Notes: a model not told the origin generated them from the sequence alone. A stretch of DNA of 64,000 nt from Candidatus Altiarchaeota archaeon (GCA_043800705.1 JAZDMS010000034.1:13831-77830), one strand, 5' to 3'. Shown: positions 11,051-57,716, counted from the first letter of the stretch. Translations and numbers: made by a program.

Positions 11051-13393
11051 ATGAAGGTAAACGGCCGTAAAAAAAGAAAAGATGCCGCCTCGGGGCGGGA
11101 TTACGCGCGGGTGGCTTCATTGCTGATGGTCGCAGCTGCGATAGCGTTCAACCTGTACATCACACTGCCGCTCATGTCCTTCGGCCTCAACGACGCCGGC
11201 GACGACGGCTATCACATATCCCAGGCCTATTACCTCAAGAAGATGATCGTCGAAGACCATACCATCTTCGGGGTCGTGAACGCGCAAGGCGCAGGATACC
11301 CCTGGAACAACAACCACCAGTTCCTCATGTACCTCACCGAAGCGCTGATAAACATCATCTCGTTCGACCGGATATCCCTCATATTCGCGCACAAGGGGCT
11401 CCTTGTGGTCTTCTACTCGTTCTACCCGGCGGGGGTCTATTTCCTTCTTCGGAAGTTCAGGCAGGCCCCGCTGGTTTGCGGCCTAGGAGCCCTGCTCGCC
11501 CCCCTACCCATCTCGGGATGGGGGCATACGACGAACGCATATTTTGTGATCGGCCTGTCTTCCCAGGCTATGGGGGCGTTCATGTTCCCGTTCGCCTTGG
11601 GCAGCTTCCATGAGGCGCTGACCGAAGGCAAAGGGCAAAGGAGGGCTGGACTCCTTTACATACTCACCCTTTTCGCCCACCCATATTACGGATTCTTCCT
11701 GTGCTTCCTGAGCGTCGTCGATCTTGCGATCCAGCTAGCAAGAAGGAGCATGGATGAGATGCTTTCGATCGTCAGGAACGCCGCCTATGCGGGGGTAATC
11801 GGGCTCCTTCTGGGCGCCTTCTGGCTCGTGCCGCTGCCGACCGCCCTCGAATACGTCCCGAGGGCCATACACATGCAGACCGCAAGGACAGCCTTCTCGC
11901 CGATGATGGAGGCGAAGGCATTCATCGGCGGCGAGCTCCTGGATGTGTCGAACAACTTCGGAGGACCGAAGGACAAGAACCTCAGATGGCCGGTCAACAC
12001 GGGGAGGGGGCGGCTTCCGATACTTACTGCGCTCACGATCATCGGGCTCGGATATGCGCTCGTAAGGAGGGACCGCTTCAGCATATTCTGCCTCCTCGTC
12101 TTCGGCATGTCGATGGTCCTCATGATCGGGGAGAGCGGGCTTTCAACCCTGGAGTATCTGCCTTTCGCAGACCATGCGAACCCGAAAAGGTTCATCTTCG
12201 TCTTCGACCTGTTCGCGGTGCTTCTATCGGCCCAGGCGCTGCACATGATACTTGACAAGTCGTTCGGTTTCTTAACAAGGTACGTCAACAACATCGCCGC
12301 CTTCGCGGTCTGCGGGATGCTCCTTGCGGTGGTGGTATACACGCCCTACAACGAGCGGATGCTCTCCGCAAAGAAGGACGTGAACCTGATATCGTATTGG
12401 CTGCCTAGCTTCGAAAAGATACGGAATGCCATCGACTCGGACGGATTGGACGGGAGGATGTATGGCGACGGGGAGACGGGGGTCAATACCGCGCCCATAA
12501 TCTTCTCCCAGTCGTGGCTCCTTGACAATCCCTACATGCGCAGGATCTATGTGACAAGGTTCTACGGGAACCTGATGGACTACCCCAACATATTCCGCCT
12601 GTTTAACATAAGATACATGCTCATGGGCGCAGGCCAGAAATTGACAGACGTGATGGAGCCCATGACAGAACAGCTCTACAAGGACAGGCTCTACAGGCTG
12701 TACAGGGTCGACGGAGACTTCGGATACCTGTCTATGAACCACAAGAAGCCGGCGCTCGTTGCGACTAGCGAGGAGGGATGGAGGGAGATCTCTGAGACCT
12801 GGATAAGATACTACAAGAACGCATCCAACCCGGACCACATGCCCCTGCTTGTCCAATACGGCGGCCCGGACGTCTCCGCAGAGGATTATTCGCAGCTTAT
12901 CCTCTACGACAGGACCGTAGAACCATCGGTGTATTCCGGATTCGGGAACAGGACCCTCGTAACCACCGTCCTCAACACTCTTGTGAAGGCGGCGATAAAG
13001 GACTCGAAAAAGGGCAAGGTATCCGACAGTATAGACGTCGTATCCCACAAAGGCCAGTCGATCAGGGCGAACGTCGAGAGCGACGGGGGGCTCCTCGTCT
13101 TGAAATACACATACCACCCCAACTGGAGGGCATACGTGGACGGCAGGGAAGAGAAGACCATGCAGGCATCTCCTGAGTTCCCCGCCGTATTCCTGAGCCC
13201 CGGAAGGCACGAAGTCGAGTTCAGATACGAGAAGGCCCCGTGGCAGAAGGCCCTCGACATGGTCTCTGCGCTCACGCTGCTTTTCGTCCTAATCCCGTCC
13301 TGGGCGCTGGATAGGGCTTCTTCGGGGCTGATGAAGAGGCTGAGGGGGAGACGCCCACCCCGTTTGCCAAAACCAGGGAGGAAAAGGCCCTAA
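11051..13393 (+). CDS. Multi-pass GT-C-like membrane protein with YfhO-like C-terminus
   Basis: Many TM helices; C-terminal YHPNWRAYVDG ... PGRHEVEFRY, typical of YfhO-like proteins. Confidence 0.7.
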   Translation: MKVNGRKKRKDAASGRDYARVASLLMVAAAIAFNLYITLPLMSFGLNDAGDDGYHISQAYYLKKMIVEDHTIFGVVNAQGAGYPWNNNHQFLMYLTEALINIISFDRISLIFAHKGLLVVFYSFYPAGVYFLLRKFRQAPLVCGLGALLAPLPISGWGHTTNAYFVIGLSSQAMGAFMFPFALGSFHEALTEGKGQRRAGLLYILTLFAHPYYGFFLCFLSVVDLAIQLARRSMDEMLSIVRNAAYAGVIGLLLGAFWLVPLPTALEYVPRAIHMQTARTAFSPMMEAKAFIGGELLDVSNNFGGPKDKNLRWPVNTGRGRLPILTALTIIGLGYALVRRDRFSIFCLLVFGMSMVLMIGESGLSTLEYLPFADHANPKRFIFVFDLFAVLLSAQALHMILDKSFGFLTRYVNNIAAFAVCGMLLAVVVYTPYNERMLSAKKDVNLISYWLPSFEKIRNAIDSDGLDGRMYGDGETGVNTAPIIFSQSWLLDNPYMRRIYVTRFYGNLMDYPNIFRLFNIRYMLMGAGQKLTDVMEPMTEQLYKDRLYRLYRVDGDFGYLSMNHKKPALVATSEEGWREISETWIRYYKNASNPDHMPLLVQYGGPDVSAEDYSQLILYDRTVEPSVYSGFGNRTLVTTVLNTLVKAAIKDSKKGKVSDSIDVVSHKGQSIRANVESDGGLLVLKYTYHPNWRAYVDGREEKTMQASPEFPAVFLSPGRHEVEFRYEKAPWQKALDMVSALTLLFVLIPSWALDRASSGLMKRLRGRRPPRLPKPGRKRP

Positions 13394-19453: not shown

Positions 19454-20056
19454 ATGGAGCCCGACAAATCCCTGGAAAAAATGCTGTACATCGTCGCAGT
19501 GTGCGCGTTATTCGCCTACATGTACTTCAACCTGAACGATATGAGGGCGCAGAAGGTCTATGAGATCGGCTCAGCAGCGGATGGCTCCTTTTCCGCATCC
19601 GACCTTATCCTGCAGGCGAAGGTCGCCGCGGGGGGAGAAAGTGGGTACGCTATTTGTCAGCCTTCCCCTAGCGGGGACATACGCAGGTGCGGGCCCGGCG
19701 ATTGGAGCTACGTCGGCGCCACGGCGAAGAAGATGGCCGGCACTCTCAGAAAATGCGTGTGGGCGCACCCCATATCGGGCAAGACCATCAGGATAACGTT
19801 CGAAGACGCAAATGTCGGGGATTCCATCGGCGGTTTCTACGGACTCTCCGACGGCTCGGAACTGGACAATCCGGGGACCGTAAACTTTACCATGTCGGTC
19901 GGCGGAAAGACCGTCTTCGATGGGGCGGCCGCCTATGCGGGGGCGCAGGAGTTCACGGTGGACACGGAACCCGGAAGGCAGACCGTGGAATTCAAGGTCT
20001 TTACAGACAACGACAGGCGGCGCTACTTCTGCTTCGACGCCTCAAGCAGCGGCTAG
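19454..20056 (+). CDS. Membrane-anchored protein with one Cys/AHP domain
   Basis: N-terminal TM helix; RKCVWAHP ... DNDRRRYFCFDA. Confidence 0.7.
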   Translation: MEPDKSLEKMLYIVAVCALFAYMYFNLNDMRAQKVYEIGSAADGSFSASDLILQAKVAAGGESGYAICQPSPSGDIRRCGPGDWSYVGATAKKMAGTLRKCVWAHPISGKTIRITFEDANVGDSIGGFYGLSDGSELDNPGTVNFTMSVGGKTVFDGAAAYAGAQEFTVDTEPGRQTVEFKVFTDNDRRRYFCFDASSSG

Positions 20057-20856
20057 AACCCCTTTGCCGCTATTATTTCAGGCACGGTCGCGAACATTAT
20101 GCCCCTGCCCTTGAAAGAGACTATCAGTTTCTCCAGGTCGTCCAAAGCCTTCTTCCCGACGCCGTTCGTCATGTGCGAAGGCAGCCCCTTGACGGAGGGC
20201 AGGTCGGTGAACTCCCATGGGTGGAAGTACAGGAGGGAATATCCCCTCAGGGCGAGCGCCACCCTGCAGCCAAGCATCGTGTACCAGAGCCCGATGTTGC
20301 GCATCCACCACCACGAGATCGGCAGCCCCAGGAGCGTCGACATCGGGACTTCGACTATTTTGCCGAACGTGCGGATCCCCCTCGGCTGCATCACGTCGAA
20401 GAGCCTGCCAGGAAGCACCGCGGGATGGATGGAACTGTCATATTCGAATTCAAGGTCGGTGAGGACATCGTAGAGCCTGGGATTCACGCTGTTCCTTGGG
20501 CTTCGAAAGCCCTTCGGCTTCATCCCCGCTGCGGCCTGGACGGAATCCATCCCAGCCCGTATCTCCCTCGTCAGCCTATCCGGGGACATTCCCTTCAGTT
20601 CTATGTGTTCGTTTGCGTGGCATCCGACGTCGTGTCCCTTTTCCACGAGCTCCCGGATTAGCCCGGGATAGTTCCTCGCGAATACTCCCGTGACGAAGAA
20701 GCTGGCCCTGATGCCGTGTTTCTGCAGAAGGTCGATGAGGCTCCGAAGGCCCCTCGCGGAGAAGACGTCCGACATAGTATGTTCGCTTTCCACGCCAAAG
20801 ACGGCGGGCGAGTCCCATTCCTCGACGTCGAAGGACAGGCAGACTAGTGATCCCAT
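20053..20856 (-). CDS. Polysaccharide deacetylase (CE4, DUF3473-like)
   Basis: SFDVEEW, ASFFVTG, GHDVGCHANEH, GFRSP, YDSS, YFHPWEF. Start placed at ATG 20856. Confidence 0.88.
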   Translation of the reverse strand: MGSLVCLSFDVEEWDSPAVFGVESEHTMSDVFSARGLRSLIDLLQKHGIRASFFVTGVFARNYPGLIRELVEKGHDVGCHANEHIELKGMSPDRLTREIRAGMDSVQAAAGMKPKGFRSPRNSVNPRLYDVLTDLEFEYDSSIHPAVLPGRLFDVMQPRGIRTFGKIVEVPMSTLLGLPISWWWMRNIGLWYTMLGCRVALALRGYSLLYFHPWEFTDLPSVKGLPSHMTNGVGKKALDDLEKLIVSFKGRGIMFATVPEIIAAKGF

Positions 20857-20992: not shown

Positions 20993-22840
20993 ATGCGCAT
21001 ACCCGACTTTTTCACGACAAAGATCGGCCGATTCAGGGCCTGGATGATGAGCCGTGGGGGGAGGTTCCTCAATGTTTTCACCATATTGCTTCTTTTTGCC
21101 GCCGCCCTGTCCGCAATGTATTTTGGGATGCTTTGGTACGTCCAGGAGACTTCCCAGAACACCATATACTTCACGAACTCGGCGGACTTCGCGGGATGGA
21201 CGACCTCGGACATCGACGAGTCCGTCTGGACGAAGGGGCCCATACCGTTGAATTCAGTCTACAGCGACAGCCAGCTTCTGGTGAGGACCACGCTGGTATC
21301 GGGGGGCCTGCCAGGATACGAGCAGGTCTCCGCAAGGGTCATAGCAAACGACTGCCTGAGCGAATTTTACATGAACGGACAACTTATCTTCAACGAGACC
21401 AACTGCGGGGGGTGCAGCCACTGCGTCTTGGGCGTCCAGGTCAACCTGACGGAACACCTAAGGCCTGGCGTGAACACGGTGGCGTTCAAGATACTCAACA
21501 GCGGCGGCGCCCAGGTTGGGTTCACATGGGCGCTTGAAGGCGACCTGGGGGTCAAGCTGCTTTACAGCGTGCTTCTCACACTCCTTCTGGCCGCCGTCGT
21601 ATACCATATGAGGAAGGGCTTCAGGCTCCTTTCGGAGGACGTCTCCGGAAGGCATAATGCGGCCGTCTTCCTCATCCTGTGCCTGCTCGTCTACTCTTTG
21701 GTCGCCGGAGAAAGGAACTTCCAGGTGTCGGTAAGCCCCCAAAACGTCTACCTCGCTGAGGCGTACGCTCAGGGGAGGCTCGGGATGGACATGTGCCTGG
21801 AGGAGATGGTCCAGGGCGTGGACGGAAAATGCTACAACCCCCAGGGCCCGATGCCGGCCGCATTGATGGCGCCCTTCGCATATTTCTTCGGCCATAACGT
21901 GAGCGACTACTCCTTCACCGTCTTCCTCGCCAGCCTCGCCGGGGCCGCATTCATGCTTGTGATGTTCGCTGTCAGGGCCAGGGGCGCAGGCTTGTCCGTG
22001 AGGGACGCGTGGACCTATTCGGCGCTGTTCTCCTTCGGGACCATAATGCTCGTGTACTCGACGTACGGCTCGTTCTGGATAGTGAACCAGATAACCTCCG
22101 TTTTATTCATCACCCTATTTCTCCTGTTCGTGGTGAGGGGCACGAACCCCTTCCTGGTCGGGGCATTCCTCGGGGCGAGCATGCTGGCCAGATACCATAC
22201 CGTCCTGTTCATCATCATATACTTCGCATACCTGGCCATGGACAGGGAAAAGAACTTCTGGAAGAAGGTTCATTCCGCGGCGCTCGCATCGGTCGCCTTG
22301 TCTTTGTTCCTGGGAGTGTTCCTTGCCCACAACTTTGCCAGATTCGGGGACCCGCTGGACGCGAGCTATTCCAGGTTCAACGGCGGCGTCTACTTCGATC
22401 TGAACAGGCTCGGTCCCCACCTTTCCAACGTCTTCTTCTCCCTGCCGACGAGGGTGTCGTATTATCCGTATTTCATGGTCCCGATGGAGGGCTTGAGCGT
22501 ATTCCTGACGACACCCCTGTTCCTCTACATCCTAAGGATCAGATACGGTACGCCCCTGCTGAAGTCGCTGCTCATAGGATGCTCTGTATATTTCCTCTTC
22601 ATCATGGCCTACCCCACGAACGGCTGGGCCCAGTTCGGGTACAGATACCTTCTGGAGATAAACCCGTTCCTGGTGGCGATGCTCGCCCTGAACAGGGAAA
22701 ACTTGAAGCCTGGAAAGCTTTTCATCATGCTTCTTGTGTTAGGGATGGCCGTCAACCTGTTCGGGGCCCTTACCTTCAAGAGGCCGCCCATCGACCAGAT
22801 GATTTACACGTTCGAAACCTTCCTGACGCAGACGAAGTGA
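20993..22840 (+). CDS. Membrane protein: galactose-binding-like jelly-roll followed by a GT-C-like TM domain
   Basis: ANDC..FYMNG ... HLRPGVNTVAFKI beta domain, then GPMPA, NFARFGDPL, QFGYRY. Confidence 0.65.
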   Translation: MRIPDFFTTKIGRFRAWMMSRGGRFLNVFTILLLFAAALSAMYFGMLWYVQETSQNTIYFTNSADFAGWTTSDIDESVWTKGPIPLNSVYSDSQLLVRTTLVSGGLPGYEQVSARVIANDCLSEFYMNGQLIFNETNCGGCSHCVLGVQVNLTEHLRPGVNTVAFKILNSGGAQVGFTWALEGDLGVKLLYSVLLTLLLAAVVYHMRKGFRLLSEDVSGRHNAAVFLILCLLVYSLVAGERNFQVSVSPQNVYLAEAYAQGRLGMDMCLEEMVQGVDGKCYNPQGPMPAALMAPFAYFFGHNVSDYSFTVFLASLAGAAFMLVMFAVRARGAGLSVRDAWTYSALFSFGTIMLVYSTYGSFWIVNQITSVLFITLFLLFVVRGTNPFLVGAFLGASMLARYHTVLFIIIYFAYLAMDREKNFWKKVHSAALASVALSLFLGVFLAHNFARFGDPLDASYSRFNGGVYFDLNRLGPHLSNVFFSLPTRVSYYPYFMVPMEGLSVFLTTPLFLYILRIRYGTPLLKSLLIGCSVYFLFIMAYPTNGWAQFGYRYLLEINPFLVAMLALNRENLKPGKLFIMLLVLGMAVNLFGALTFKRPPIDQMIYTFETFLTQTK

Positions 22841-22880
22841 GCATGTCGCATTTATTTTCCGCCTGCTTATCTATCTTATT

Positions 22881-23693
22881 ATGAGGCATTTTGCGAGCCT
22901 GGTCCTGCTGTGCTCCTATTTCATGCTCACAGTCTGCCTCGGACTATATACCGCCCACGTTACATACCCCCTGATGTATCCGCCGCCGGGGCAGGTACAG
23001 GTGATCGAGCCCATCGTCGCCGACCCGCAGGACGTGTCCTCGACGTTCTGGTTATTCGTCTACGTCATCATCGTGACGGCGGTCATGCTGGCCTTGATGA
23101 GGCTGGGCCTCGGGGGGATAATCCAGGCGGCCATGTACATGTCGTTCTTTGCGGGAAGCTTCATCACGTTTTCGGCCTTCCTTGGCGAACCTGCTGCCCT
23201 AACCCTAAGCCTCGCTTCGCTGGCGGCCCTCCTAATGAGGCGCGGCGACCTCATCCTTGCGAACACCGCCATGGTGTTCACCATCTCGGGGGTGGGGGCA
23301 ATACTCGGCCTCTCGCTCGGCATATGGCCGGTGTTCGCATTCATCGTCCTGTTGTCGGCCTACGATTATGTCGCGGTGTTCGTGACGAAGCATATGGTGA
23401 CTTTGGCGAAGGGCAGCAAGGGCAGGTTCGGGCTGATGTTCCTGGTCCCTGTGGGGGATAGGATGATGGGACTTGGCGCCGGCGACGTCGCCATACCGAC
23501 GACGTTCGTCGTCTCGGTCTATGTGGCGCACGGCATAGGATACGCGGTCCCGACCGCATACGGTGGCCTCATCGGAGTCGTGTCGCTCTTCTATTATCTC
23601 ATGGACAGGGAAGGCGCCACGCTGCCCGCGCTTCCGCCGATAACTGCGGGACTCCTGATAGGATACGGCCTGTGCCTCTTGATACTTCGATAG
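22881..23693 (+). CDS. Presenilin-family (GxGD) intramembrane aspartyl protease
   Basis: YD motif (AYDYVAV), GLGAGD, PALP. Confidence 0.9.
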   Translation: MRHFASLVLLCSYFMLTVCLGLYTAHVTYPLMYPPPGQVQVIEPIVADPQDVSSTFWLFVYVIIVTAVMLALMRLGLGGIIQAAMYMSFFAGSFITFSAFLGEPAALTLSLASLAALLMRRGDLILANTAMVFTISGVGAILGLSLGIWPVFAFIVLLSAYDYVAVFVTKHMVTLAKGSKGRFGLMFLVPVGDRMMGLGAGDVAIPTTFVVSVYVAHGIGYAVPTAYGGLIGVVSLFYYLMDREGATLPALPPITAGLLIGYGLCLLILR

Positions 23694-28794: not shown

Positions 28795-30069
28795 CTATCT
28801 GGTCTTCTCCCATATGTTTACATGGCTTTCGGCCTTTTTTAGCGGGTTCAGTTCAAGAATCAGCGGGAAGCAGAAGAAAGTGAGAGTGAAGAGGTAGTAT
28901 GGGAAGAAGAAGAACAGGACGAGGGGGACTCTGGGGGTGAGCCTCGACATCCTCAATGCTGCGATGACGTTGTACGCGGTTATGACGAGCATCGATGCGA
29001 GGAAATACGGGAAGGATGCGCTCATCGGCCAGACGCCCGTGAGCGTGTTATGCACGTATTCTATCGTCCCGAACATGCACAGCCAGCCGATGAAGTATTT
29101 CACGACGAGCCAGGAGAGGTAGTTGCCGTACTGGGCGAAGTAGATCATGTAGCCGTGGAATATCTGGTAGAACGTTATGGGGAGGATGACGGAGCCCTGA
29201 ATGTAGAAATACAGCTGGTTAGGGAGGCCGTAAAATCCTATGAAGCCGTATCGGGGGTTGAGGAACATGTCCCTGTGTTTGCGCATGACCTGCAGCGCCC
29301 CCCTGCCCCACCGTATCCTCTGCTTCGCTATCCCCCCGAGCGTCTGCGGGGCGGTCGTGTACATGGTCGCGCCGCTCATGATGAGCTGCCAGCCCCTCTT
29401 GCGCATGCTGAGGCCGATGTCGCAGTCTTCGGAGAGGGTGTCGGTGGCGAAGAGGCCGGCTTCCACGATGGCCTTCCTCCTGAAGGCCGCGAAGCCCGGG
29501 AGTATGTATGTTCCGCCGACGCGGTCGAAGATGTACCGCCACATGCTCGACAGGACGTATTCGAAGTCCTGGTACCATGTCAGCGGGTTCCCGTTGGTCT
29601 TGACGGCGATTATGCCGGATACCGCCCCGACCGCGGCGTCTATAAACGGCTCAGTGAATCTCCTGAGGGCGTCCTTTGAGAGCGTCGAGTCGGCGTCGAG
29701 CATCACGATTATCTCGTTTTTCGAGTTCATGATGCCCTTGTTGACGGCCAGCGCCTTGCCGAGGTGGTCCGTATTGATCACTCGTATGCGTCCGTCGCCC
29801 CCGGCGAGTCTTGAAAGGATATCGCATGTTCCATCGCTTGATCCGTCGTCTACTACGACCACATCTATCTCGTTCGGGTAGTCCGACTTGAAGACGCTGT
29901 CGACCGTGGACTCGATGCAGGACTCCTCGTTGTGCGCCGGGATCACGACGCTGACAGGGGGATAGAAACCTTCCATCCGTCTCCGCCTCGGCAGGATGGC
30001 AACGAGCGTGGAAGGCATGAATGTGACTATCGAAATCACGAAGAAAATGGTCAGTATCTCGTCGATCAT
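28795..30069 (-). CDS. Processive GT2 glycosyltransferase (cellulose synthase/PgaC-like)
   Basis: PAHNEE, DDGS, DAD, SED, QRIRW, C-terminal TM helices. Confidence 0.88.
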   Translation of the reverse strand: MIDEILTIFFVISIVTFMPSTLVAILPRRRRMEGFYPPVSVVIPAHNEESCIESTVDSVFKSDYPNEIDVVVVDDGSSDGTCDILSRLAGGDGRIRVINTDHLGKALAVNKGIMNSKNEIIVMLDADSTLSKDALRRFTEPFIDAAVGAVSGIIAVKTNGNPLTWYQDFEYVLSSMWRYIFDRVGGTYILPGFAAFRRKAIVEAGLFATDTLSEDCDIGLSMRKRGWQLIMSGATMYTTAPQTLGGIAKQRIRWGRGALQVMRKHRDMFLNPRYGFIGFYGLPNQLYFYIQGSVILPITFYQIFHGYMIYFAQYGNYLSWLVVKYFIGWLCMFGTIEYVHNTLTGVWPMSASFPYFLASMLVITAYNVIAALRMSRLTPRVPLVLFFFFPYYLFTLTFFCFPLILELNPLKKAESHVNIWEKTR

Positions 30070-51297: not shown

Positions 51298-52534
51298 ATT
51301 TTGAATGACTTACACATTAGCGCAGCATCATTCCTAATCTTCTCCTTAAGCTTCGCATCCTGCGGTTTCCCGACGACTTCACTGATCCATCCCGCGATCC
51401 GCCTCATCTCGGGCTCCTTCATCCCTCGAATAGTCACGCACGGCGTCCCGATCCTGATCCCCGACGTCACAAACGGCTTCTCCTTGTCGTAGGGGACCGC
51501 GTTCTTGTTGAGTGTGATACCCGCCTCCTGGAGGGCGGCCTCCGCGTCCTTTCCTGTGACCTTCTTATCGGACAGGTCGCAGAGCATGAGGTGGTTGTCG
51601 GTGCCACCGGAGACCAGGTTGAATCCGTCCTTCAATAGGGCTTCCGCTAGCGCCTTCGAGTTCTTCACTATCTGCTCATGGACCTTCCTCCGCTCAGGCG
51701 TCAGGTTCTCCTTGAAGCAGACTGCCTTGGCGGCGATCTGGTTCATTATAGGGCCGCCCTGCATCCCTGGGAACACAGCCCGGTCTATGTCCTTCGCATA
51801 TTTCTCCTTGCACATTATCATCGCGCCTCTTGGGCCCATGAGGGTCTTGTGGGTGGTTGTCGTGACGAAGTCTGCATACTTTATCGGCGACGGATGAACG
51901 CCTGCGCCAATGAGGCCTGCAATGTGGGCAACATCCGCCAAAAGCAGGGCTCCGACTTCGTCCGCAATCTCGCGGAACTCCTTGAAGGGGACGACCCGCG
52001 GATAGGCGCTGTATCCGCAGACGATGATCCTTGGCTTGACATCCTTCGCCCTCGCCAGCACCTCAGCAGGGTTGATTATGCCAGTCTCCTTCGAGACCGT
52101 GTAGAATTCTCCCCTGTAGATCTTTCCGGACTCGTTTATCTTGTAGCCATGGCTAGGTGTCCGCCATGGGACAGCTCCATGGAAAGGATCGTTTCGCCGG
52201 GCTGGAGAGCGGCAAGATACACCGCCAGATTGGCCTGTGTGCCACTGTGAGGCTGGACGTTAACGTGCTCGGCGCCAAAAAGCTTCTTCGCCCGCTCGAT
52301 CGCAAGGTCTTCGACGACGTCGACGAACTCGCAACCGCCATAATACCGCTTATGCGGATAGCCTTCGGCGTACTTGTTGGTCATGACGGAACCTGAGGCC
52401 TCGCGGACTGCGGCGGATGTCAGGCTCTCGGACGCTATGAGATTGATGCCTTCCTGCCTCTTGGTCTCGGAGGATATCGCAGACGCTACATCAGGATCGA
52501 CTTCAGACAGTTTCTTGTAAAAGGATGAATCCAA
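51288..52534 (-). pseudogene. glyA: Serine hydroxymethyltransferase, bacterial/THF type, with a 1-nt frameshift
   Basis: [30 protein letters not shown] in one frame; SHG...TTTHKTL.GPRG, GGTDNH, SGIRIGT in another. One base is missing near 52155. Confidence 0.9.
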
Positions 52535-52681
52535 TGCGAATCACCGAGATAGAATACATGGTAAAAGGAGATAAAAATGCAGAAGTAGCCCAAAGGGAAA
52601 AAATAACAGACTACAGCCGATAAAATCGACATTTGCAGGATATTCGACGTAACCCTCATCATTAAACAAGGACCTGCCGAC

Positions 52682-52706
52682 CGAGCCTTTTTCATAAAAA
52701 GGCTCG
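52682..52706. repeat. Perfect 11-bp inverted repeat
   Basis: CGAGCCTTTTT-CAT-AAAAAGGCTCG in the glyA/tRNA intergenic region. Confidence 0.7.
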
Positions 52707-52794
52707 CGAAAAAAGGGCGACCTCACTAACGTTCGGTCCCCCAACAAAACGACCACATAAAACCCCAACCAACATTAAACAAATACACACAAAA

Positions 52795-52886
52795 GGACCT
52801 GCAGCCAAGCCTGGATACTCGTGAACCTGCGAGGTTCACCCGCCCCGAACAGACTACGTCTGTTCAGGGTGGCGCCAGCCTGCATA
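52795..52886 (+). other. tRNA-Arg-like 5' half with a 52-nt two-hairpin insertion in the D-loop
   Basis: GGACCTGCAGCCAAGCCTGGATA [52818-52869] TGGCGCCAGCCT matches the tRNA-Arg 5' half; no 3' half follows. Confidence 0.85.
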
Positions 52887-52940
52887 CAACTGAGGCATGA
52901 ACACTCTTAACCCAATCTAACATTAATCATATAACAAAAA

Positions 52941-53015
52941 GGGCCCGTAGCCAAGCCTGGATATGGCGCCAGCCTTCTAAGCTGGAGATCGTGGGTTCAA
53001 ATCCCGCCAGGCCCG
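52941..53015 (+). tRNA. tRNA-Arg (anticodon TCT)
   Basis: Cloverleaf: anticodon arm CCAGC-CT-TCT-AA-GCTGG, T arm GTGGG-TTCAAAT-CCCGC, acceptor GGGCCCG/CAGGCCC with one C-A mismatch. No encoded CCA. Confidence 0.93.
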
Positions 53016-53044
53016 TATAAGTGCGGATTTCAAAAAGCTATAAT

Positions 53045-53098
53045 ATCATGAAACCCGCGGGATGCAAAAAGCCCGAATGGTTTTTTCAAGAATCCCGC
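53045..53098. repeat. 54-bp dispersed hairpin repeat, copy 1
   Basis: 46/54 identical, ungapped, to 60354-60407. Confidence 0.8.
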
Positions 53099-53110
53099 CA
53101 GGTCCACTCC

Positions 53111-53824
53111 ATGCAAATAATAGGCGCCTTACTGGCAGCAGCCGGTGCTGGGATCGTCTACTCGGCTGTGAAGACGTACAGAAGGGACGAATTGATCACT
53201 AATACGCCCACGTCCAAGGTCCGTTCCATCGCAGTCGGAAGGGTAGAACTATACGGGCTGGCCCTGCCATATGAGAAGAACAGGCTGAAGACGCCGTTTG
53301 GCGGCAAAGACTGCATATACTGCAGTTGGTCCGTAGAGTCCCTCGCCCAAGACCGCGGACACAACGACCGCAGATACCGGACCGTAAAGGAAGGCGAACG
53401 TGCAGGGCTGTTCTACCTCAAAGACGACACAGGCAAAGTCCTCATATACTCCAAAGGGGCGGACGTGGAGACGAAGTATCAGCGACAATACGACAAAATA
53501 CCAACCAATGACGCATATGAATTCCTGGCCAGCCAGGGAATCGACTTTGAAAAAATACTAAGCCCCCGCCTGACCGAATCGTTCATAGCGCCGAATGAGA
53601 ACGTATACGTCCTCGCCACCGCGAAGACCAACCCCCACAAAAAAGACCCTACCGAACAGCAGGAGGACGAACTGATCGTCTGCAAAGGCGACGACGTCTT
53701 CTATATCTCGCCAAGGCCGTACGATAAGATCCACAGATACGCCGCAGGGAACATCAGCACATACCTGCTGGCTGGATCCGCGATGATCCTGGCCGGCCTA
53801 GCCCTGATATTCATATACCCGTGA
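53111..53824 (+). CDS. GIDE-domain membrane protein
   Basis: N- and C-terminal TM helices, TPTSKVRS, VELYG, FYLKDDTG, adjacent to lemA. Start placed at ATG 53111. Confidence 0.72.
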   Translation: MQIIGALLAAAGAGIVYSAVKTYRRDELITNTPTSKVRSIAVGRVELYGLALPYEKNRLKTPFGGKDCIYCSWSVESLAQDRGHNDRRYRTVKEGERAGLFYLKDDTGKVLIYSKGADVETKYQRQYDKIPTNDAYEFLASQGIDFEKILSPRLTESFIAPNENVYVLATAKTNPHKKDPTEQQEDELIVCKGDDVFYISPRPYDKIHRYAAGNISTYLLAGSAMILAGLALIFIYP

Positions 53825-53840
53825 CCCGAATAATTGAGCG

Positions 53841-54422
53841 ATGCCCCCGGTCGTGGTCTTCCTAATCGGCGCGTTCGCTTTGCTAGTGATGGCAGAGGCG
53901 GCATACTATTATGTGAAGACATACAACGGCCTGGTGGATTCGAGGAACAACATATTGAGGGCGTGGTCTAACATAGACGTCCTATTGAAGCAGAGGATGG
54001 ATGAGATTCCGAATCTCGTGTCGACGGTGAAAGGCTACGTGGCCCACGAACATGGGATATTTGTCGAGGTTGCGAAGGCCAGAACTACTTTGGAGCAGGC
54101 CAGAACGGTAGGGGAAAAGGAGGCGTCGGACAACATCATCCGCGAAACGCTCGGAAGGCTTTATGCCGTCGTCGAAGACTATCCGGTCCTCAAGGCAGAC
54201 CAGTCGTTTCTGAAACTCCAGGTGAGGATAACACAGATAGAGAACCAGATAGCGGACAGGAGGGAGTTCTACAACAGCGCAGCGACAATCTATAACACAC
54301 GAATCCAGTCGATACCTGACAATATCGTCGCAAACCATTCAGGATTTGGCAGAATCCCCCTCTTTAAGGCCTCCGACGAGGAAAGACGGCGCATAGAGGT
54401 ATTTTTCAGAGGAAATGGGTAA
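53841..54422 (+). CDS. lemA: LemA family protein
   Basis: YN.LV, AWSNIDVLLKQR...IPNLV, EDYP.LKA, RREFYN. Confidence 0.9.
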   Translation: MPPVVVFLIGAFALLVMAEAAYYYVKTYNGLVDSRNNILRAWSNIDVLLKQRMDEIPNLVSTVKGYVAHEHGIFVEVAKARTTLEQARTVGEKEASDNIIRETLGRLYAVVEDYPVLKADQSFLKLQVRITQIENQIADRREFYNSAATIYNTRIQSIPDNIVANHSGFGRIPLFKASDEERRRIEVFFRGNG

Positions 54423-54513
54423 GGCTGCCATGCACGGGAGTATATGGCTTATATTCACTGTTTCTCTAGGATTGAGGGAATTGTTCACTTTGCGGGACTG
54501 AATTCGAATACAA

Positions 54514-57363
54514 ATGTCTTCAAAGAAAAGAAACAAACGGAAGGAAAATGAGGAAATCGTCCTGCCCATTCCCGTAGGCCGATTCAGCGGCATAACAAGC
54601 ACTCCGGTCATCGCCGCCTTCGCCATACTGCTGTTCACAGTCATGCGGCTGTCCGGGCTCGGAGTCCTCGCAACCCCCATACTCTCCGGTATCGCGACCA
54701 TCTGGATCGCATCCAGCGTGTATGGCCAATCCGGCGGTAAAAAAGACCCGTGGGCCTGGGGCACCCCCGCGCTGGCCTTGATCACGTCCACTTTCCTCTA
54801 CTACTCCGTAAGCTACGACTATCCGCTGGACGCCGACTACCCCTACTTCGCAATATCAGCCGCAATCTTCACCCTTTTCTACGCACTCGCTCAAGTGAGG
54901 ACGATAAGCTTCGAATCCTCTGCAGTCACCGCCCTGTTCATCAGCGCCATCATCATACACCTCGTCCCGGCGGTAAGCCACAACCTAATGGGCGACCTCG
55001 ACAGCTACTGGCGGCTGAAATGGATGGAGGGAGTCTACGACAACGGCTACCCGACCGAATTCGACCCCCTCACATACCCGATGATGGGAGGCCTCGCACA
55101 CCACGAGGACTTCGCCAAATACACCAACCCCAACGACGGGCTCGGATTCGGACTCACACAGAAGGACACTCCGATGCTCATGGAGCTCGCATACGCCGCC
55201 ATCGCATTGATGATGAAGCCCTTCGGATTCTCCCTCTACCAGACCGCGATGCTAGTGCCGGGGATATTCGCAGCCCCCATAGTCGTTTTGATGTACCTCC
55301 TCGTCAAGGAACTGTTCTCCGGCATGAGGCCATACAACCAGATAGCCGCCTTTCTCGCAGGATTCATGTACATGCTCACACCCGTCCTCGCGGCCAAGGT
55401 CATAGCCACGAACTGCGAGAACGAAGCCTTCGGCATGTTCCTGATGCTCTCGACCCTTTACCTCTTCTTCGCCGCATTCCACAGGAAGAGCTTCAGATAT
55501 GCGATACTCTGCGGATTCACCATGCTGATGCTAAGGATGGTCTGGAGCGGGATAGGGTATACGCTGATAACAATAGGCATCTTCGGGACGCTCTACTCCA
55601 TCGTAAACTTCATCCGGAACAGGAATGCGATGGAACACCTGCCGTATCTTGTCATACCGCTGCCCATCTACCTCTCAATCGGGGTCTTCGCGCACGCCAG
55701 AGGCGGGCTTCCGATATTCAACGTGCCTGGTTCCATTGAGAGCTACCCCATGATCGTAGCCATCGCAACGTCCATCTTCCTCGAATTCATAAGGACCAGG
55801 AAAAACGGGCTCCAGCTAATCGGCGATGCGACCCTGGAGGGGCGAACCGCCGACTGGGCCGAAAGGAACATAAACACAATCTGTGCAGTCGGGGCGGTGA
55901 TCTTCATAGCGTCGCTCCTCTTCTACACGACGCCGACAAATTGGATCAACTTCATCAACAGCGCATACCATGCGGCAAGCGGGAAGAAAAGCCTAGTCCA
56001 CCAGACGGTTTCGGAACAGAACCCGATGGCGACCTCCTTCGGCGAATACATCAGCCAAGGATACAGACAATACGGCATAGCCGTCTACCTAAGCATAATC
56101 GCCATTCCCGCGATGGCGTACCTGGCCATAACCGAAGGCAGCGTGGGGGCCATATTCCTCCTGGCATGGGGCCTTCCGATGATGTATGCAGCGTATAACA
56201 GGAGCGTCTGGGTACTGGGCGCCAGCGCGTCCGTAATAGCCCTCTCCGCGTCGCTTGGTCTCTTCGTCGCCCTGAAAAAATCTCGGCTAAACGCCGTCAC
56301 GGCAGTCGGCACGATCTTGTCGATAATAATCATCCCCGCCTATGTGCCGATGTTCGGCCCATTCCTCTTCGGACAATCCGTAGGATACGTCGTGATGCAC
56401 ATGGGCCCGTCGTCGGATATCTACATGTGGCAGCCGATGCTCGAATGGCACTACAACAACACGCGACAAGGCGATGCGATACTCACATGGTGGGACTACG
56501 GCCACTGGATCACGGCGGTCGCCAGAAGGCCGGTCATAGCCGACGGCCTCCAGGCCGACTACTACCAGATACAGGATGTGGCGAGGATGTTCATGAACAA
56601 GACCACGGAGGAGGAGTCGTTCGAGATGATCAGGGCATATGACCGGGCGTACAAGGAGCACAACCAGACCTGGGGCCTCAACTATGCCGCCATAGACTGG
56701 ACGATGATAGGGAAAGCCAGCGCATTGCACTTCATCGCCACCGGCAACATAGAGAACGCGACCCCGGGCGCCTGGGGGAACTACGCCCAATGCCAGTTCC
56801 TCCCGGACCAAAGCAGGCTCGACGACCAGGTGACGGCAGCCGGAGGAACCTTCTCAAAGGAGAAGCAGCTCGTATTCGGATGCCAGAACGGGATGGGATT
56901 ATTGTTCATTGTGACCGAAAACAACATAAAGGAAGTGAACGTAATCGTCGGCCAGGGCCAGCTCATACCGTGGTCGCAGTGGATGAAACAGCAGGACGCG
57001 TCCATCCTCGGAGTCCAACCCCTTATGAGGAACAACGACCAGGAAAAGGTGCCGAGCATACTCTTCTGCGCAATGAACTGGAAAAGCCTGCAGGGAGGAA
57101 GCATATGCCGGCTGCCCCAGTTCACAAACCTAATCTACGTGCCGCAGCAGTTCCAAGACTACCTCATGACCCGCATATACCTCGGAAAATACATCGACGA
57201 ATATGCGGCCGCGGGCCTGTACAACAGGCCGGTGGTGCCGCTGAAACACTTCAGGGAAGTCCCGGACTACAACAACGACGGCACACCAGACGGCGAATTC
57301 AGCTTCGGATACGTAAGATCCTACGAGATAAGCTACGAAGGATTCAAAGACACACAACAATAG
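54514..57363 (+). CDS. aglB: Archaeal oligosaccharyltransferase AglB/STT3
   Basis: DSY, ENE, TVSE, WWDYG and DWTMIGK (DK-like) motifs; multi-TM N-terminus. Confidence 0.92.
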   Translation: MSSKKRNKRKENEEIVLPIPVGRFSGITSTPVIAAFAILLFTVMRLSGLGVLATPILSGIATIWIASSVYGQSGGKKDPWAWGTPALALITSTFLYYSVSYDYPLDADYPYFAISAAIFTLFYALAQVRTISFESSAVTALFISAIIIHLVPAVSHNLMGDLDSYWRLKWMEGVYDNGYPTEFDPLTYPMMGGLAHHEDFAKYTNPNDGLGFGLTQKDTPMLMELAYAAIALMMKPFGFSLYQTAMLVPGIFAAPIVVLMYLLVKELFSGMRPYNQIAAFLAGFMYMLTPVLAAKVIATNCENEAFGMFLMLSTLYLFFAAFHRKSFRYAILCGFTMLMLRMVWSGIGYTLITIGIFGTLYSIVNFIRNRNAMEHLPYLVIPLPIYLSIGVFAHARGGLPIFNVPGSIESYPMIVAIATSIFLEFIRTRKNGLQLIGDATLEGRTADWAERNINTICAVGAVIFIASLLFYTTPTNWINFINSAYHAASGKKSLVHQTVSEQNPMATSFGEYISQGYRQYGIAVYLSIIAIPAMAYLAITEGSVGAIFLLAWGLPMMYAAYNRSVWVLGASASVIALSASLGLFVALKKSRLNAVTAVGTILSIIIIPAYVPMFGPFLFGQSVGYVVMHMGPSSDIYMWQPMLEWHYNNTRQGDAILTWWDYGHWITAVARRPVIADGLQADYYQIQDVARMFMNKTTEEESFEMIRAYDRAYKEHNQTWGLNYAAIDWTMIGKASALHFIATGNIENATPGAWGNYAQCQFLPDQSRLDDQVTAAGGTFSKEKQLVFGCQNGMGLLFIVTENNIKEVNVIVGQGQLIPWSQWMKQQDASILGVQPLMRNNDQEKVPSILFCAMNWKSLQGGSICRLPQFTNLIYVPQQFQDYLMTRIYLGKYIDEYAAAGLYNRPVVPLKHFREVPDYNNDGTPDGEFSFGYVRSYEISYEGFKDTQQ

Positions 57364-57432
57364 ACATAAGACTACGAGGCAGCCCCCAAAGCCGGTATAT
57401 TAGAAACAACCCTCACCATAAAACACTCGACT

Positions 57433-57578
57433 GGACCTGTAGCCAAGCCTGGATACCCGTGAACCTGCGAGGTCCACTCGCCCTCGAACAGCCCACGGCT
57501 GTTCAGGGTGCTCGGACTGCCCCGCAGTCCGGCAACCGAGACCGCCCGAGGCGATCTCTGATGGCGTCAGCCCCCATA
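57433..57578 (+). other. tRNA-Arg-like 5' half with a 106-nt four-hairpin insertion in the D-loop
   Basis: GGACCTGTAGCCAAGCCTGGATA (identical to the first 23 nt of the downstream tRNA) [57456-57561] TGGCGTCAGCC; no 3' half follows. Confidence 0.85.
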
Positions 57579-57630
57579 ACAGGCCAAACAACGCTAATAA
57601 CCACAACCAGCATTATTCAATAAACACAAA

Positions 57631-57705
57631 GGACCTGTAGCCAAGCCTGGATATGGCGTTAGCCTCCTAAGCTAAAAATCGTGGGTTCGAATCCCACCGG
57701 GTCCG
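57631..57705 (+). tRNA. tRNA-Arg (anticodon CCT)
   Basis: Acceptor GGACCTG/CGGGTCC, anticodon arm TTAGC-CT-CCT-AA-GCTAA, T arm GTGGG-TTCGAAT-CCCAC. Confidence 0.95.
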
Positions 57706-57716
57706 CTGAGTTTTTT

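Follow-up and report, generated by a model that had tools for sequence, protein, structure and literature searches.

Both tRNA-Arg genes in a 64,000-nt window of a Candidatus Altiarchaeota archaeon genome (JAZDMS010000034.1:13831-77830) are preceded by a partial duplication of themselves, which takes in the upstream region and tRNA positions 1-35 and has unique GC-rich hairpins inserted in its D-loop. The two loci belong to a lineage-wide class of terminal self-copies, in which a gene's own 5′ end recurs upstream of it and its own 3′ end downstream. The original prediction had placed half copies upstream of both genes, which direct reading and measurement of the repeats bore out, and its placement of both inserts at one shared D-loop point held as well. 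All features described below lie on the plus strand and are numbered from the first letter of the window.

At the first locus, the intact tRNA-Arg(TCT) (52941-53015; called by ARAGORN, Rfam 63.4 bits) has a C6.A67 mismatch in its acceptor stem, marked in the Rfam alignment, and its half copy lies ahead of it in two parts. Part a (52795-52817) corresponds to positions 1-23, spanning the acceptor 5′ strand, D-stem 5′ strand and D-loop, and departs from the inner tRNA at positions 3, 6 and 8; part b (52870-52881) corresponds to positions 24-35, spanning the D-stem 3′ strand, the anticodon stem 5′ strand and CT, and is identical to 52964-52975 at 12/12 letters, with divergence starting at position 36 (GCATA...). 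Between them sits a genome-unique D-loop insert of 52 nt (52818-52869) with two hairpins, H1 (52821-52839; arms 52821-52828/52832-52839) and H2 (52847-52865; arms 52847-52854/52858-52865, lengthened by CCC/GGG). The repeat between 52791-52817 and 52937-52963 (27 nt, 89% identical) takes in AAAAG ahead of the +1 position. Farther upstream, a promoter-like, A-rich stretch (52761-52794) carrying AACATTAA duplicates the one preceding the intact tRNA, with 52761-52785 and 52909-52933 identical at 80% across 25 nt. As predicted, the AACATTAA / AGCATTAT motif precedes the locus-1 half by 24 nt and each intact tRNA by 22 nt, and its presence within this longer duplication confirms the suggestion that motif and 5′ half were copied together. 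Upstream-40 identity at this locus was 0.66 against a null 99th percentile of 0.65, and the 59-nt spacer (52882-52940), which holds the second copy of the upstream stretch, has no run of at least 5 T. The repeats are spaced 146-148 nt apart, a distance made up of 93 nt and the insert of 52 nt; at locus 1, tRNA positions 1-35 and about 58 nt of sequence ahead of them are duplicated in tandem.

The second locus repeats this arrangement ahead of the intact tRNA-Arg(CCT) (57631-57705; ARAGORN, Rfam 66.8 bits), which is followed by T6 at 57711-57716. Here part a (57433-57455, positions 1-23) is identical to 57631-57653 at 23/23 letters, part b (57562-57575, TGGCGTCAGCC) shows one difference from the tRNA before the sequence diverges, and the 106-nt D-loop insert (57456-57561) carries four hairpins: H1 (57459-57477), H2 (57486-57504), H3 (57513-57531) and H4 (57538-57558). 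The spacer (57576-57630) contains AGCATTAT at 57609-57616 and, again, no run of at least 5 T. A possible older remnant at 57380-57395 (CAGCCCCCAAAGCCGG versus CAGCCCCCATAACAGG) weakly resembles the end of this half copy, at a level that chance could produce (81% over 16 nt, spacing 188). Both inserts fold far beyond their shuffles, the shorter at -27.7 kcal/mol against -13.1 +/- 2.9 (z -5.0; 0/200 equal) and the longer at -54.7 kcal/mol against -36.0 +/- 3.5 (z -5.4; 0/200 equal). In H1 of locus 2, one A.C mismatch leaves 7/8 pairs. The genes neighboring the two loci are housekeeping genes (SHMT, GIDE-like, LemA, STT3/AglB, LPG_synthase_TM and a B12 radical SAM protein), with no integrase among them.

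Although the original prediction treated the two loci by themselves, they are instances of a genome-wide and lineage-wide pattern. We counted exact copies of at least 11 nt within 400 nt of a tRNA, with wrong-side and non-cognate copies as controls. In this genome, 11/32 tRNAs have an upstream copy of their 5′ end, 11/32 a downstream copy of their 3′ end and 19/32 one or the other, against wrong-side counts of 0/32 and 0/32 and non-cognate counts of 13/992 each. A congener gave 9/30, 10/30 and 18/30 (controls 1/30 and 1/30), and genomes from other families gave 2/30 5′ and 6/30 3′ copies (G024; controls 1 and 1) and 5/22 and 1/22 (G026; controls 0 and 0). Self-copies occurred at 14/30 mixed loci across the order, four of them from this genome, and at 0/34 in three unrelated archaeal MAGs. 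Some protein-gene ends are duplicated too, in addition to both ends of most tRNA genes, and several duplications have their start precisely on the first base of a gene (tRNA +1 or ATG) or their end on the discriminator base. Small hairpins are inserted at loop positions of the lineage's terminal self-copies (D-loop, T-loop, junction 8/9).

H1 and H2 occupy the same place at both loci of this genome, at both loci of the congener (G001) and in a metagenome contig (L218), and the recurrence of the architecture in a second assembled genome and a metagenome contig argues against an assembly artefact. Identity among the genomes bearing these hairpins is 72.8% over 24 coding-length HSPs; of 82 kb of tRNA-flanking sequence only 30% can be aligned between them, yet the half-copy region aligns at 74%. 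Across 91 stem cells of H1 and H2, 97.8% pair, 4/19 pairs have changed on both sides, and the covariation score was reached by 0/500 shuffles, with slid controls 25-49% paired; the predicted homology of H1 and H2 between loci, with a compensatory change, holds. This conservation of pairing looks like purifying selection, and a real function has to be taken seriously. Where positions 1-34 of the CCT tRNAs differ between this genome and the congener, each half copy carries the letters of its own genome; within any one genome, the copies track the tRNA they belong to. The region is also variable: a contig from a relative of ~91% identity has 130 other letters in place of window positions 52677-52935 (259 nt), and in the stretches fetched from three further members of the genus (G002, G003 and G004) no half copy precedes tRNA-Arg(TCT). 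The TCT half copy has a degenerate acceptor strand in G001 and an intact one in L218.

A copy of the 3′ end, unmentioned in the original prediction, lies downstream of tRNA-Arg(TCT). This unit (53054-53106) opens with an arm (53054-53063) complementary to the T-stem 3′ strand, continues into an A-run/T-run hairpin (T6, 53081-53086) and closes with the copied tRNA 3′ end (53091-53106, ...CCCGCCAGGTCCA); 53000-53014 and 53091-53105 are 93% identical. It folds with a z of -3.45 and stops 4 nt short of an ATG at 53111; between its 3′ strand (CAGGTCC) and the half copy 1 acceptor strand (GGACCTG), 7/7 pairs can form. The same type of unit occurs at other tRNAs and in relatives, and there are arrays of up to four 87-nt units. 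Units of different tRNAs have a common core (TCAYGNA box, GGAT-G, A-run/T-run hairpin, RAAT) with tRNA-specific arms, and show inverted and direct copies of adjoining sequence. The first run of at least 5 T after tRNA-Arg(TCT) is at +66, and for 6/11 tRNAs of this genome with an exact downstream 3′-end copy it falls within the unit at +60 to +66; in the remaining 5/11 it lies at 121-291 or is absent within 450 nt, and nine tRNAs of this genome that lack such a copy have it at +3 to +12. G.T outnumbers A.C by 11 to 2 in units with at least 9/11 Watson-Crick pairs (a hand count, with the threshold set post hoc), which hints at pairing in sense-strand RNA; over all 41 units with an arm the counts are 15 and 8 (p 0.21), and a broader hairpin test gave 19 and 18.

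One rival reading holds that the half copies are exons of a split or multi-intron tRNA, in which the half copy minus its insert (junction CCTGGATA-TGGCG) would join a 3′ half, either the 53054-53106 unit or the 3′ half of the inner tRNA, with a further tRNA-Arg nested around the intact one. The GGACCTG/CAGGTCC pairing is better than the inner tRNA stem with its C6.A67 mismatch, tRNA-Arg(CCG) was not found by ARAGORN, relatives' tRNA-Arg(TCT) genes have 30-200 nt introns at positions 37/38, and an Asgard preprint describes D-arm tRNA introns in other archaea. Against this, as had been predicted, there is no canonical BHB: both inserts score 8, and 6-7 as an alternative 5′ exon with exon skipping, against a null median of 7, with 751/2000 random 52-nt placements scoring at least 8, whereas 13 ARAGORN-called anticodon-loop introns of this genome score 8-12 (10/13 at least 10). 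By the archaeal BHB rule, the half copies cannot be spliced into a tRNA. The loop past the anticodon stem reads CTGCATA or CCCCATA and so holds no Arg anticodon, the 3′ unit lacks positions 38-48, locus 2 has no 3′ unit, and the single EndA match lies in a 185-aa open frame. Rfam matches at E<=10 numbered 10, and the two intact genes, with neither half copy, were the only tRNAs among them; no partner 3′ half was found elsewhere in the genome, and 13-mer matches for a complementary spacer partner (direct or reverse-complement) numbered 0 and 2 against 3.6 expected, with no complementary leader/trailer pair. For want of a BHB, an Arg anticodon, an Rfam match and a complementary pair, we disfavor exons as barely credible. 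Split tRNA genes have a complementary GC-rich intervening sequence, a BHB motif and a separate 3′ half. Like those in Nanoarchaeum equitans and Caldivirga maquilingensis, the half copies are 5′ halves that stand alone, each with an upstream region of its own, and end in the anticodon loop, but they have none of those three features, and an intact gene for the same kind of tRNA follows after 55-60 nt. Like non-canonical D-arm introns of archaeal tRNAs, they contain a D-loop intervening sequence, here made of small hairpins, as are the lineage's anticodon-loop introns; unlike them, they show no defining BHB motif, and the interrupted copy has no 3′ half.

A mobile origin fares little better. As its main idea, the original prediction proposed a tRNA-targeting palindromic element that inserts in the D-loop while a clean tRNA is retained; such an element would be of REP/MITE or single-stranded-DNA type, with a duplicated clean tRNA rescuing the cell. 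Insertion with duplication does happen in the lineage, since another multicopy structured element (SAGCC-loop-GGCTS-GCGAAR plus a second stem-loop; 16 matches in 4/41 genomes, reversed control pattern 0, with variants in other families) lies directly after truncated tRNA 5′ copies and within protein genes, with exact duplications of 22-145 nt on either side. The Arg-locus hairpins, however, are copies neither of that element nor of anything else in the genome: at up to 3 mismatches in 2.0 Mb, H1 and H2 occur only at the two Arg loci and H3 and H4 once each. There are no terminal inverted repeats, the 87.6%-complete genome yielded no match to Y1/HUH transposase (Y1_Tnp), TnpB or reverse transcriptase (RVT_1), and plain tandem duplication including the upstream region explains locus 1, making such an insertion unlikely. 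REP/BIME and MITE repeats are likewise small GC-rich hairpins in non-coding DNA, sometimes arrayed, but they are multicopy with a cognate transposase, whereas H1-H4 occur once or twice each, and the genome yielded no HUH transposase. In animal mitochondria, tandem duplication with random loss leaves partial tRNA pseudogenes adjoining the functional gene; these decay quickly, keep no likeness to the gene and have no hairpin arrays. Partial tRNA copies in archaea are known to arise as attachment-site remnants of integrated plasmids or viruses that target tRNA genes, and those described in PMC9897764 and PMC3293823 likewise lie beside an intact gene, forming a direct repeat and no functional tRNA. 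There, however, the fragments accompany kilobases of element DNA and an integrase, with about 9-23 kb of foreign DNA between the partial and the complete copy (PMC9897764) or a 5′ fragment 1.8 kb upstream (PMC3293823); here copy and gene are 50-200 nt apart, cargo and integrase are absent, the neighbors are housekeeping genes, the upstream region is co-duplicated, and more than half of all tRNAs are affected, at both ends, each with its own sequence and with hairpins at loop positions. We consider such remnants very improbable. A more serious, though still doubtful, contender is that the 5′ half copies and minihelix-like 3′ units are selected cis-acting RNA modules of the pre-tRNA, serving as a platform for folding, processing or termination or as a decoy for a factor recognizing the cognate tRNA; copies would then match their own tRNA because function needs mimicry. 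Hairpins kept with compensatory change at about 73% genome identity, copies that track their own tRNAs, the common core, tRNA-specific arms and arrays of the 3′ units, the placement of the first T run, the G.T excess in good stems and the lack of a terminator between 5′ copies and tRNAs all speak for it. Against it stand the missing TCT half copies in three congeners, the length difference in the ~91% relative, the degenerate acceptor strand in G001, the unequal hairpin number (2 versus 4), the unselected G.T/A.C counts, and the capacity of template switching to imitate covariation (PMC8794818).

On balance we lean towards reading the half copies as partial self-duplications that are transcribed together with the tRNA and form a structured leader of the pre-tRNA. 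They may have originated in errors of local replication at tRNA genes: a backward template switch or slippage would duplicate part of the gene in tandem, and a jump to the complementary strand would yield a perfect hairpin. Survival would be limited to events that spare one intact gene, leaving 5′ pieces upstream and 3′ pieces downstream. According to PMC8794818, template switching in replication produces perfect hairpins and compensatory-looking changes; the short stems here are similarly perfect, each unique, with apparently compensatory changes, but that work concerns rRNA and other RNA alignments, whereas these arrays lie inside partial tRNA copies. None of the 14 5′ copies in this genome has a run of at least 5 T between it and its tRNA, so a transcript begun upstream would continue into the tRNA, which fits the proposal of a tRNA-derived leader growing by hairpin units. 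Transcription from the duplicated upstream region would thus pass through the half copy to give a long, tightly folded 5′ leader that RNase P would remove. Short-tract gene conversion may keep the tRNA-like parts alike, and pairing in the stems may be maintained by repeated template switching, by selection in favor of an inert leader with a stable fold, or by both.

Several observations sit uneasily with the self-duplication reading. H1 and H2 are conserved in place, with covariation, across 72.8% identity; insertions at loop positions are easier at the RNA or single-strand level than as random DNA events; exact gene-boundary starts and ends are unpredicted by plain replication slippage; and G.T exceeds A.C in well-paired 3′ units, subject to the post hoc threshold and the weaker result over all 41. 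The variability of the region among close relatives, in turn, supports viewing the copies as by-products. The architecture appears undescribed. In our view the half copies, rather than being tRNA exons or mobile elements, are tolerated by-products with a modest cis role at most.

The window holds two tRNA genes called by ARAGORN, tRNA-Arg(TCT) at 52941-53015 and tRNA-Arg(CCT) at 57631-57706 (Rfam bit scores 63.4 and 66.8 against RF00005), and upstream of each lies a copy of tRNA positions 1-35 whose D-loop is interrupted by a hairpin insert. At tRNA-Arg(TCT) (locus 1), half copy 1 begins at 52795-52817 with positions 1-23, part of a 27-nt repeat that includes the AAAAG before +1 (89% identity), runs through a 52-nt insert of two hairpins, H1 and H2 (52818-52869), and resumes at 52870-52881 with positions 24-35 (12/12), separated from the intact gene by a 59-nt spacer. 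At tRNA-Arg(CCT) (locus 2), half copy 2 matches positions 1-23 at 57433-57455 (23/23) and continues, after a 106-nt insert of four hairpins, H1-H4 (57456-57561), with TGGCGTCAGCC, which differs from the tRNA at one letter. All hairpins have stems of 8-9 bp and 3-nt loops, with one A.C mismatch in H1 of locus 2, and both inserts fold far better than shuffled sequences (z -5.0 at locus 1 and -5.4 at locus 2; 0/200 shuffles as good). Direct reading and repeat measurement thus bear out the anatomy in the original prediction. Its further claim, that the upstream region was duplicated together with the 5′ half, holds at locus 1, where 52761-52785 is 80% identical to the stretch before the tRNA (52909-52933); at locus 2 the upstream similarity is weak (0.53). 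Because the upstream stretch, positions 1-23 and positions 24-35 are all repeated in register (80%, 89% and 100% identity), locus 1 is a tandem duplication of ~93 nt, comprising the upstream region and tRNA positions 1-35, into which 52 nt were inserted later. The repeat is head-to-tail, includes non-genic flank and has one breakpoint inside the gene. The elements at both Arg loci are partial duplications.

A hairpin unit overlooked in the original prediction lies downstream of tRNA-Arg(TCT), at 53054-53106. The 3′ strand of the unit (53091-53106) repeats the tRNA's T-stem and acceptor 3′ strands (15 nt, 93%) and is the sole occurrence of this 3′-end motif in the genome; its 5′ strand (53054-53063) is complementary to the 3′ strand, and its top is an A-run/T-run hairpin with T6 at 53081-53086 (fold z -3.45). 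The acceptor strand of this 3′ unit, CAGGTCC, pairs at 7/7 positions with GGACCTG of half copy 1, and the intact tRNA-Arg(TCT) carries a C6.A67 mismatch in its own acceptor stem. Half copy 1 (T6) and the 3′ unit (A67, and T70 with A3) are predicted to form a perfect mutual stem. The unit ends 4 nt upstream of the ATG of a gene for a GIDE-like membrane protein (53111-53824). In the minimum-free-energy fold for this genome, the half-copy acceptor strand pairs with the 3′ arm of H1; this pairing was not seen in the sequences of a congener (G001) and of a metagenome contig (L218), and was therefore dropped as a general mechanism.

The copies at the Arg loci are part of a lineage-wide pattern. We searched for exact self-matches of at least 11 nt, comparing the first 25 nt of each tRNA gene with the 400 nt upstream and the last 20 nt with the 400 nt downstream. 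In this genome (G000), 11/32 tRNA genes have a 5′ copy upstream and 11/32 a 3′ copy downstream, 19/32 having either, with wrong-side matches at 0/32 for each end and non-cognate matches in 13/992 pairs for each end. The congener gave 9/30, 10/30 and 18/30, respectively (wrong-side 1/30 and 1/30), while two genomes of other families gave 2/30, 6/30 and 8/30 (G024; wrong-side 1 and 1) and 5/22, 1/22 and 6/22 (G026; wrong-side 0 and 0). Mixed loci from across the order, four of them from this genome, gave 9/30, 7/30 and 14/30 (wrong-side 0 and 0). The outgroup of three unrelated archaeal MAGs gave 0/34 in every category, wrong-side matches included; the genome sets drawn at class and phylum level all belong to the same order. 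The literature searches brought up no account of tRNA genes being mostly flanked by short-range copies of themselves.

Hairpin inserts occur at loop positions in further 5′ copies as well. Upstream of tRNA-Glu, a gene that ARAGORN miscalls as 'Stop(tta)', there are two tandem units with two D-loop hairpins each; the tRNA-Cys copy has a hairpin insert at junction 8/9, and the tRNA-Phe copy has inserts at two sites. The downstream 3′ units are ~87 nt long. Each opens with a spacer bearing a TCAYGNA box, followed by an arm whose sequence complements the T-stem 3′ strand plus acceptor positions 66-69, then a hairpin and finally the tRNA's closing 13-17 nt, repeated exactly up to the discriminator base. 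They occur in tandem up to three or four times. Arrays of two to four units, each closing with an exact repeat of the final 16-17 nt of the tRNA, lie at C5:61388-61720 and C35:49800-49990 of this genome and downstream of tRNA-Val(TAC) in the congener (L092), where four units form two identical pairs (a, a, b, b). The downstream copy in genomes G006 and G019 is simply the 3′ third of the tRNA (30 nt), with T-loop hairpin inserts in G006, so the 3′ units read as a mirror image of the 5′ half copies.

Several observations on tRNA annotation accompany this pattern. Two 93%-complete genomes (G014 and G023) yield only 11 and 14 tRNAs when scanned with the Rfam tRNA model, and G010 yields 120; the low counts suggest many heavily interrupted genes. 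In this genome, the 'tRNA-Stop(tta)' at C24:1772-1945 reads CTTTCGG and probably represents a miscalled tRNA-Glu(TTC) whose intron is ~99 nt long. The 'tRNA-Arg(cct)' with a 148-nt intron at C19:3434-3656 has the anticodon loop CTCCAGC, with ATGACGAC and CTGA boxes in the intron, and is probably an ARAGORN miscall of tRNA-Trp(CCA) with a C/D-box intron. Dispersed runs of a ~7-nt periodic motif (GACCGAA, GACTGAA, GGAAACT) occur at C1:190-310 and 22180-23040, C12:76899-76950, C30:46700-46780, and C35:50200-50300, 170720-170750 and 185876-185990, several of them adjoining tRNA loci.

The half copies are not tRNA exons. Upstream of the intact genes, nothing tRNA-like was found in Rfam at E<=10, the RF00005 matches being confined to 52941-53015 and 57631-57705, and the covariance model recovers no full cloverleaf from either half copy; the loop after their anticodon stem reads CTGCATA or CCCCATA, with no Arg anticodon. 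Were the inserts D-loop introns, splicing would create the junction CCTGGATA-TGGCG and, like split tRNAs, would depend on a motif of the bulge-helix-bulge (BHB) kind, as reported in the literature for non-canonical introns. By a simple scheme of our own, which seeks two 3-nt bulges, a 4-bp helix between them and cleavage that restores the tRNA, 13 anticodon-loop introns called by ARAGORN in this genome score 8-12, with 10/13 scoring at least 10. Both D-loop inserts reach a best score of 8, where the outer helix spans 0-1 bp and the boundaries are displaced, against a null median of 7 (751/2000 random 52-nt placements score at least 8), in agreement with the absence of a canonical BHB noted in the original prediction. 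Treated as a substitute 5′ exon of the inner tRNA, the half copies score 6-7, and five other inserts in 5′ copies (two in the congener, two at tRNA-Glu and one at tRNA-Cys) likewise score 6-7. A single EndA match lies in a 185-aa open frame. A split tRNA was rejected as well: this 87.6%-complete genome holds no 3′ half elsewhere and no complementary partner of the spacers, with 0 and 2 direct or reverse-complement 13-mer matches against 3.6 expected.

Nor are the inserts multicopy mobile elements, as would befit the proposal of a palindromic element that targets tRNA genes. Across the 2.0 Mb genome, allowing up to 3 mismatches, H1 and H2 occur at these two loci only and H3 and H4 once each, and searches for a Y1/HUH transposase of the kind expected for REP/RAYT or IS200/IS605-type elements (PF01797), for TnpB (PF07282) and for a reverse transcriptase (RVT_1) gave no match; since the genome is 87.6% complete, the absence of these enzymes is unproven. 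Retro-copying would call for a reverse transcriptase and for copy boundaries at the ends of the mature RNA; no RVT_1 match was obtained, yet the discriminator base is the end point of many 3′ copies, and +1 is the first position of some 5′ copies. Partial tRNA copies are known from CRISPR spacers and from mobile-element integration, which leaves kilobases of foreign DNA between the copies (PMC9897764, PMC3293823), whereas the repeats at the two Arg loci are only 146-198 nt apart. The att-remnant reading also lacks an integrase: none of the nine neighbouring proteins, two of which have no Pfam family, matches an integrase family. The neighbours include SHMT, the GIDE-like membrane protein, LemA, an STT3/AglB-like protein, an LPG_synthase_TM protein and a B12 radical SAM protein. 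A radical SAM protein has only distant matches (best 52%, in MAGs labelled Woesearchaeota), and a protein-atlas lead for the STT3-like protein points toward Thermoproteota or Bathyarchaeota; a search for MCR gave no match. At 52136-52259 (minus strand) the SHMT (serine hydroxymethyltransferase) gene occupies two frames, with the break near 52150, where it reads ...GGACACCTAGCCATGGCTACAAG...; a C run seems to lack one base, through either a frameshift or an assembly error.

The placement of T runs bears on how these loci may be transcribed. None of the 14 5′ copies in this genome has a run of at least five Ts between the copy and its tRNA, so transcription that begins in the duplicated upstream region would give a pre-tRNA with a half-copy leader. 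Downstream, the first such run lies at +3 to +12 in nine tRNAs without a 3′ unit and at +60 to +66, inside the unit hairpin, in six tRNAs with one.

Comparison with related sequences indicates that the hairpins are maintained. This genome and the congener are 72.8% identical over 24 HSPs of at least 300 nt, with 30% of 82 kb of tRNA flanks alignable; the half-copy region aligns at 74%, and H1 and H2 recur at an identical D-loop site in both of the congener's Arg loci and in the metagenome contig, the one true relative in a metagenome pattern scan that also returned one chance match in a coding region (L219). Over five sequences, 97.8% of 91 cells in the H1 and H2 stems are paired, and pairs are kept through two-sided changes in 4/19 cases, as at the second pair of H1 (T-A, A-T, C-G). 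No shuffle of 500 reaches the covariation score, and slid controls are 25-49% paired; these values come from few related sequences, from which the structure itself was derived, and a palindrome acting at the DNA level would give equal counts. Wherever tRNA letters differ between the genomes, each half copy matches its own genome's tRNA, which argues for gene conversion or selection for mimicry. Against strict constraint, the fetched stretches of three other genomes of the genus (G002-G004) have no half copy before tRNA-Arg(TCT), the acceptor strand of the congener's TCT half copy is degenerate, and a contig of a ~91%-identical relative has 130 other letters in place of 52677-52935. G.T pairs outnumber A.C mismatches 11 to 2 in well-paired 3′-unit stems, by a hand count with a threshold set post hoc; unselected 3′ units give 15 versus 8 (p 0.21), and all hairpins at tRNA loci an uninformative 19 versus 18.

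A conserved structured element recurs at other loci, extending to protein genes. It reads SAGCC, a TTAYTAA loop or T-rich hairpin, then GGCTS and GCGAAR, followed by another stem-loop that contains TTCGC...GCTCGAT, and the stem of the element covaries (CAGCC, GAGCC, CGGCC, CAACC). The pattern has 16 matches in 4/41 genomes, with 0 for a reversed control and variants in other families; sites in this genome are C23:480-657, C33:4112-4135, C35:50128-50151, C42:25486-25509 and C19:~20100, and further loci are L067-L082, L146, L150 and L179. It stands directly behind truncated 5′ copies of tRNAs, directly behind the 3′ ends of tRNAs, and within protein genes or at their ends, with exact duplications of 22-145 nt on its flanks; in protein genes the duplicated stretch belongs to the gene that is interrupted. 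A leuA-like gene carries a 66-67 nt exact direct duplication at its 3′ end flanking the element. In an ABCE1-like gene (C19:~19950-20320; L077 in the congener), the duplication of 50 nt or ~145 nt begins exactly at the ATG in both genomes, and the truncated upstream copy stays in frame through the element, its stop codon lying at the intact copy's ATG or 1 nt ahead of it (in the congener TGA overlaps the ATG; here TAA is followed by A-ATG). The two Arg loci lack this SAGCC-type element and share a common logic with it, in that every arrangement observed leaves one gene intact. Eight loci carrying the element matched no Rfam family, and the stretch of the window searched matched none besides tRNA; an sR47 C/D-box match (E 0.51, 20.9 bits; gathering score 40) was disregarded, and K-turn, C/D-box and hammerhead readings of the 3′ units and the element did not fit by eye. 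Another conserved element, GGGTCAGGA...AAAAC-YGGGGAGGGGC-loop-GCCCCTCCGCGGTTTG, immediately precedes the downstream 3′-end copies in G024 (L117, L129, L131) and also occurs in this genome at C42:~29870-29940 and C33:~12260-12320.

These partial duplications may have originated in replication template switching, for which hairpin creation by template-switch mutation is a precedent (PMC8794818). A backward switch would yield a tandem partial duplication, a switch to the other strand would yield a perfect hairpin, only events keeping one intact essential gene would survive, and the half copies would now act as a structured 5′ leader. Such an origin poorly explains insertions located in loops, duplications that start at +1 or ATG and 3′ copies that end at the discriminator base, the core common to 3′ units of different tRNAs, and the excess of G.T over A.C (11 versus 2) in well-paired 3′-unit stems. 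For these reasons we retain, as a tentative minority view, a reading in which tRNA genes are wrapped in mimics of their own ends, with a 5′ half bearing an expanded D-loop upstream and arrays of ~87-nt T-arm/acceptor minihelices downstream. The mimics could be selected parts of the pre-tRNA, which would serve folding, processing or termination, or would decoy a factor that recognises tRNA. Alternatively, they could stem from an undescribed mode of insertion tied to RNA ends and loops, which would duplicate 11-145 nt of its target and would affect protein genes too, there with the SAGCC-loop-GGCTS-GCGAAR element.

Partial tRNA copies are usually taken as integration scars; here they are a regular feature of the locus, conserved throughout an uncultured archaeal lineage, that keeps in step with the gene, and in these genomes they will confound the annotation of tRNAs and the search for attachment sites and split tRNAs. 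If either branch of the mimic reading were true, it would constitute a new class, a tRNA-locus architecture not described before. According to an Asgard preprint, the way in which tRNA introns arrive has yet to be settled. If the copies are by-products, the lineage would offer a natural laboratory for how structured genes under heavy transcription acquire hairpins, introns and duplicated ends; if functional, they would represent a new kind of cis-acting tRNA mimic.
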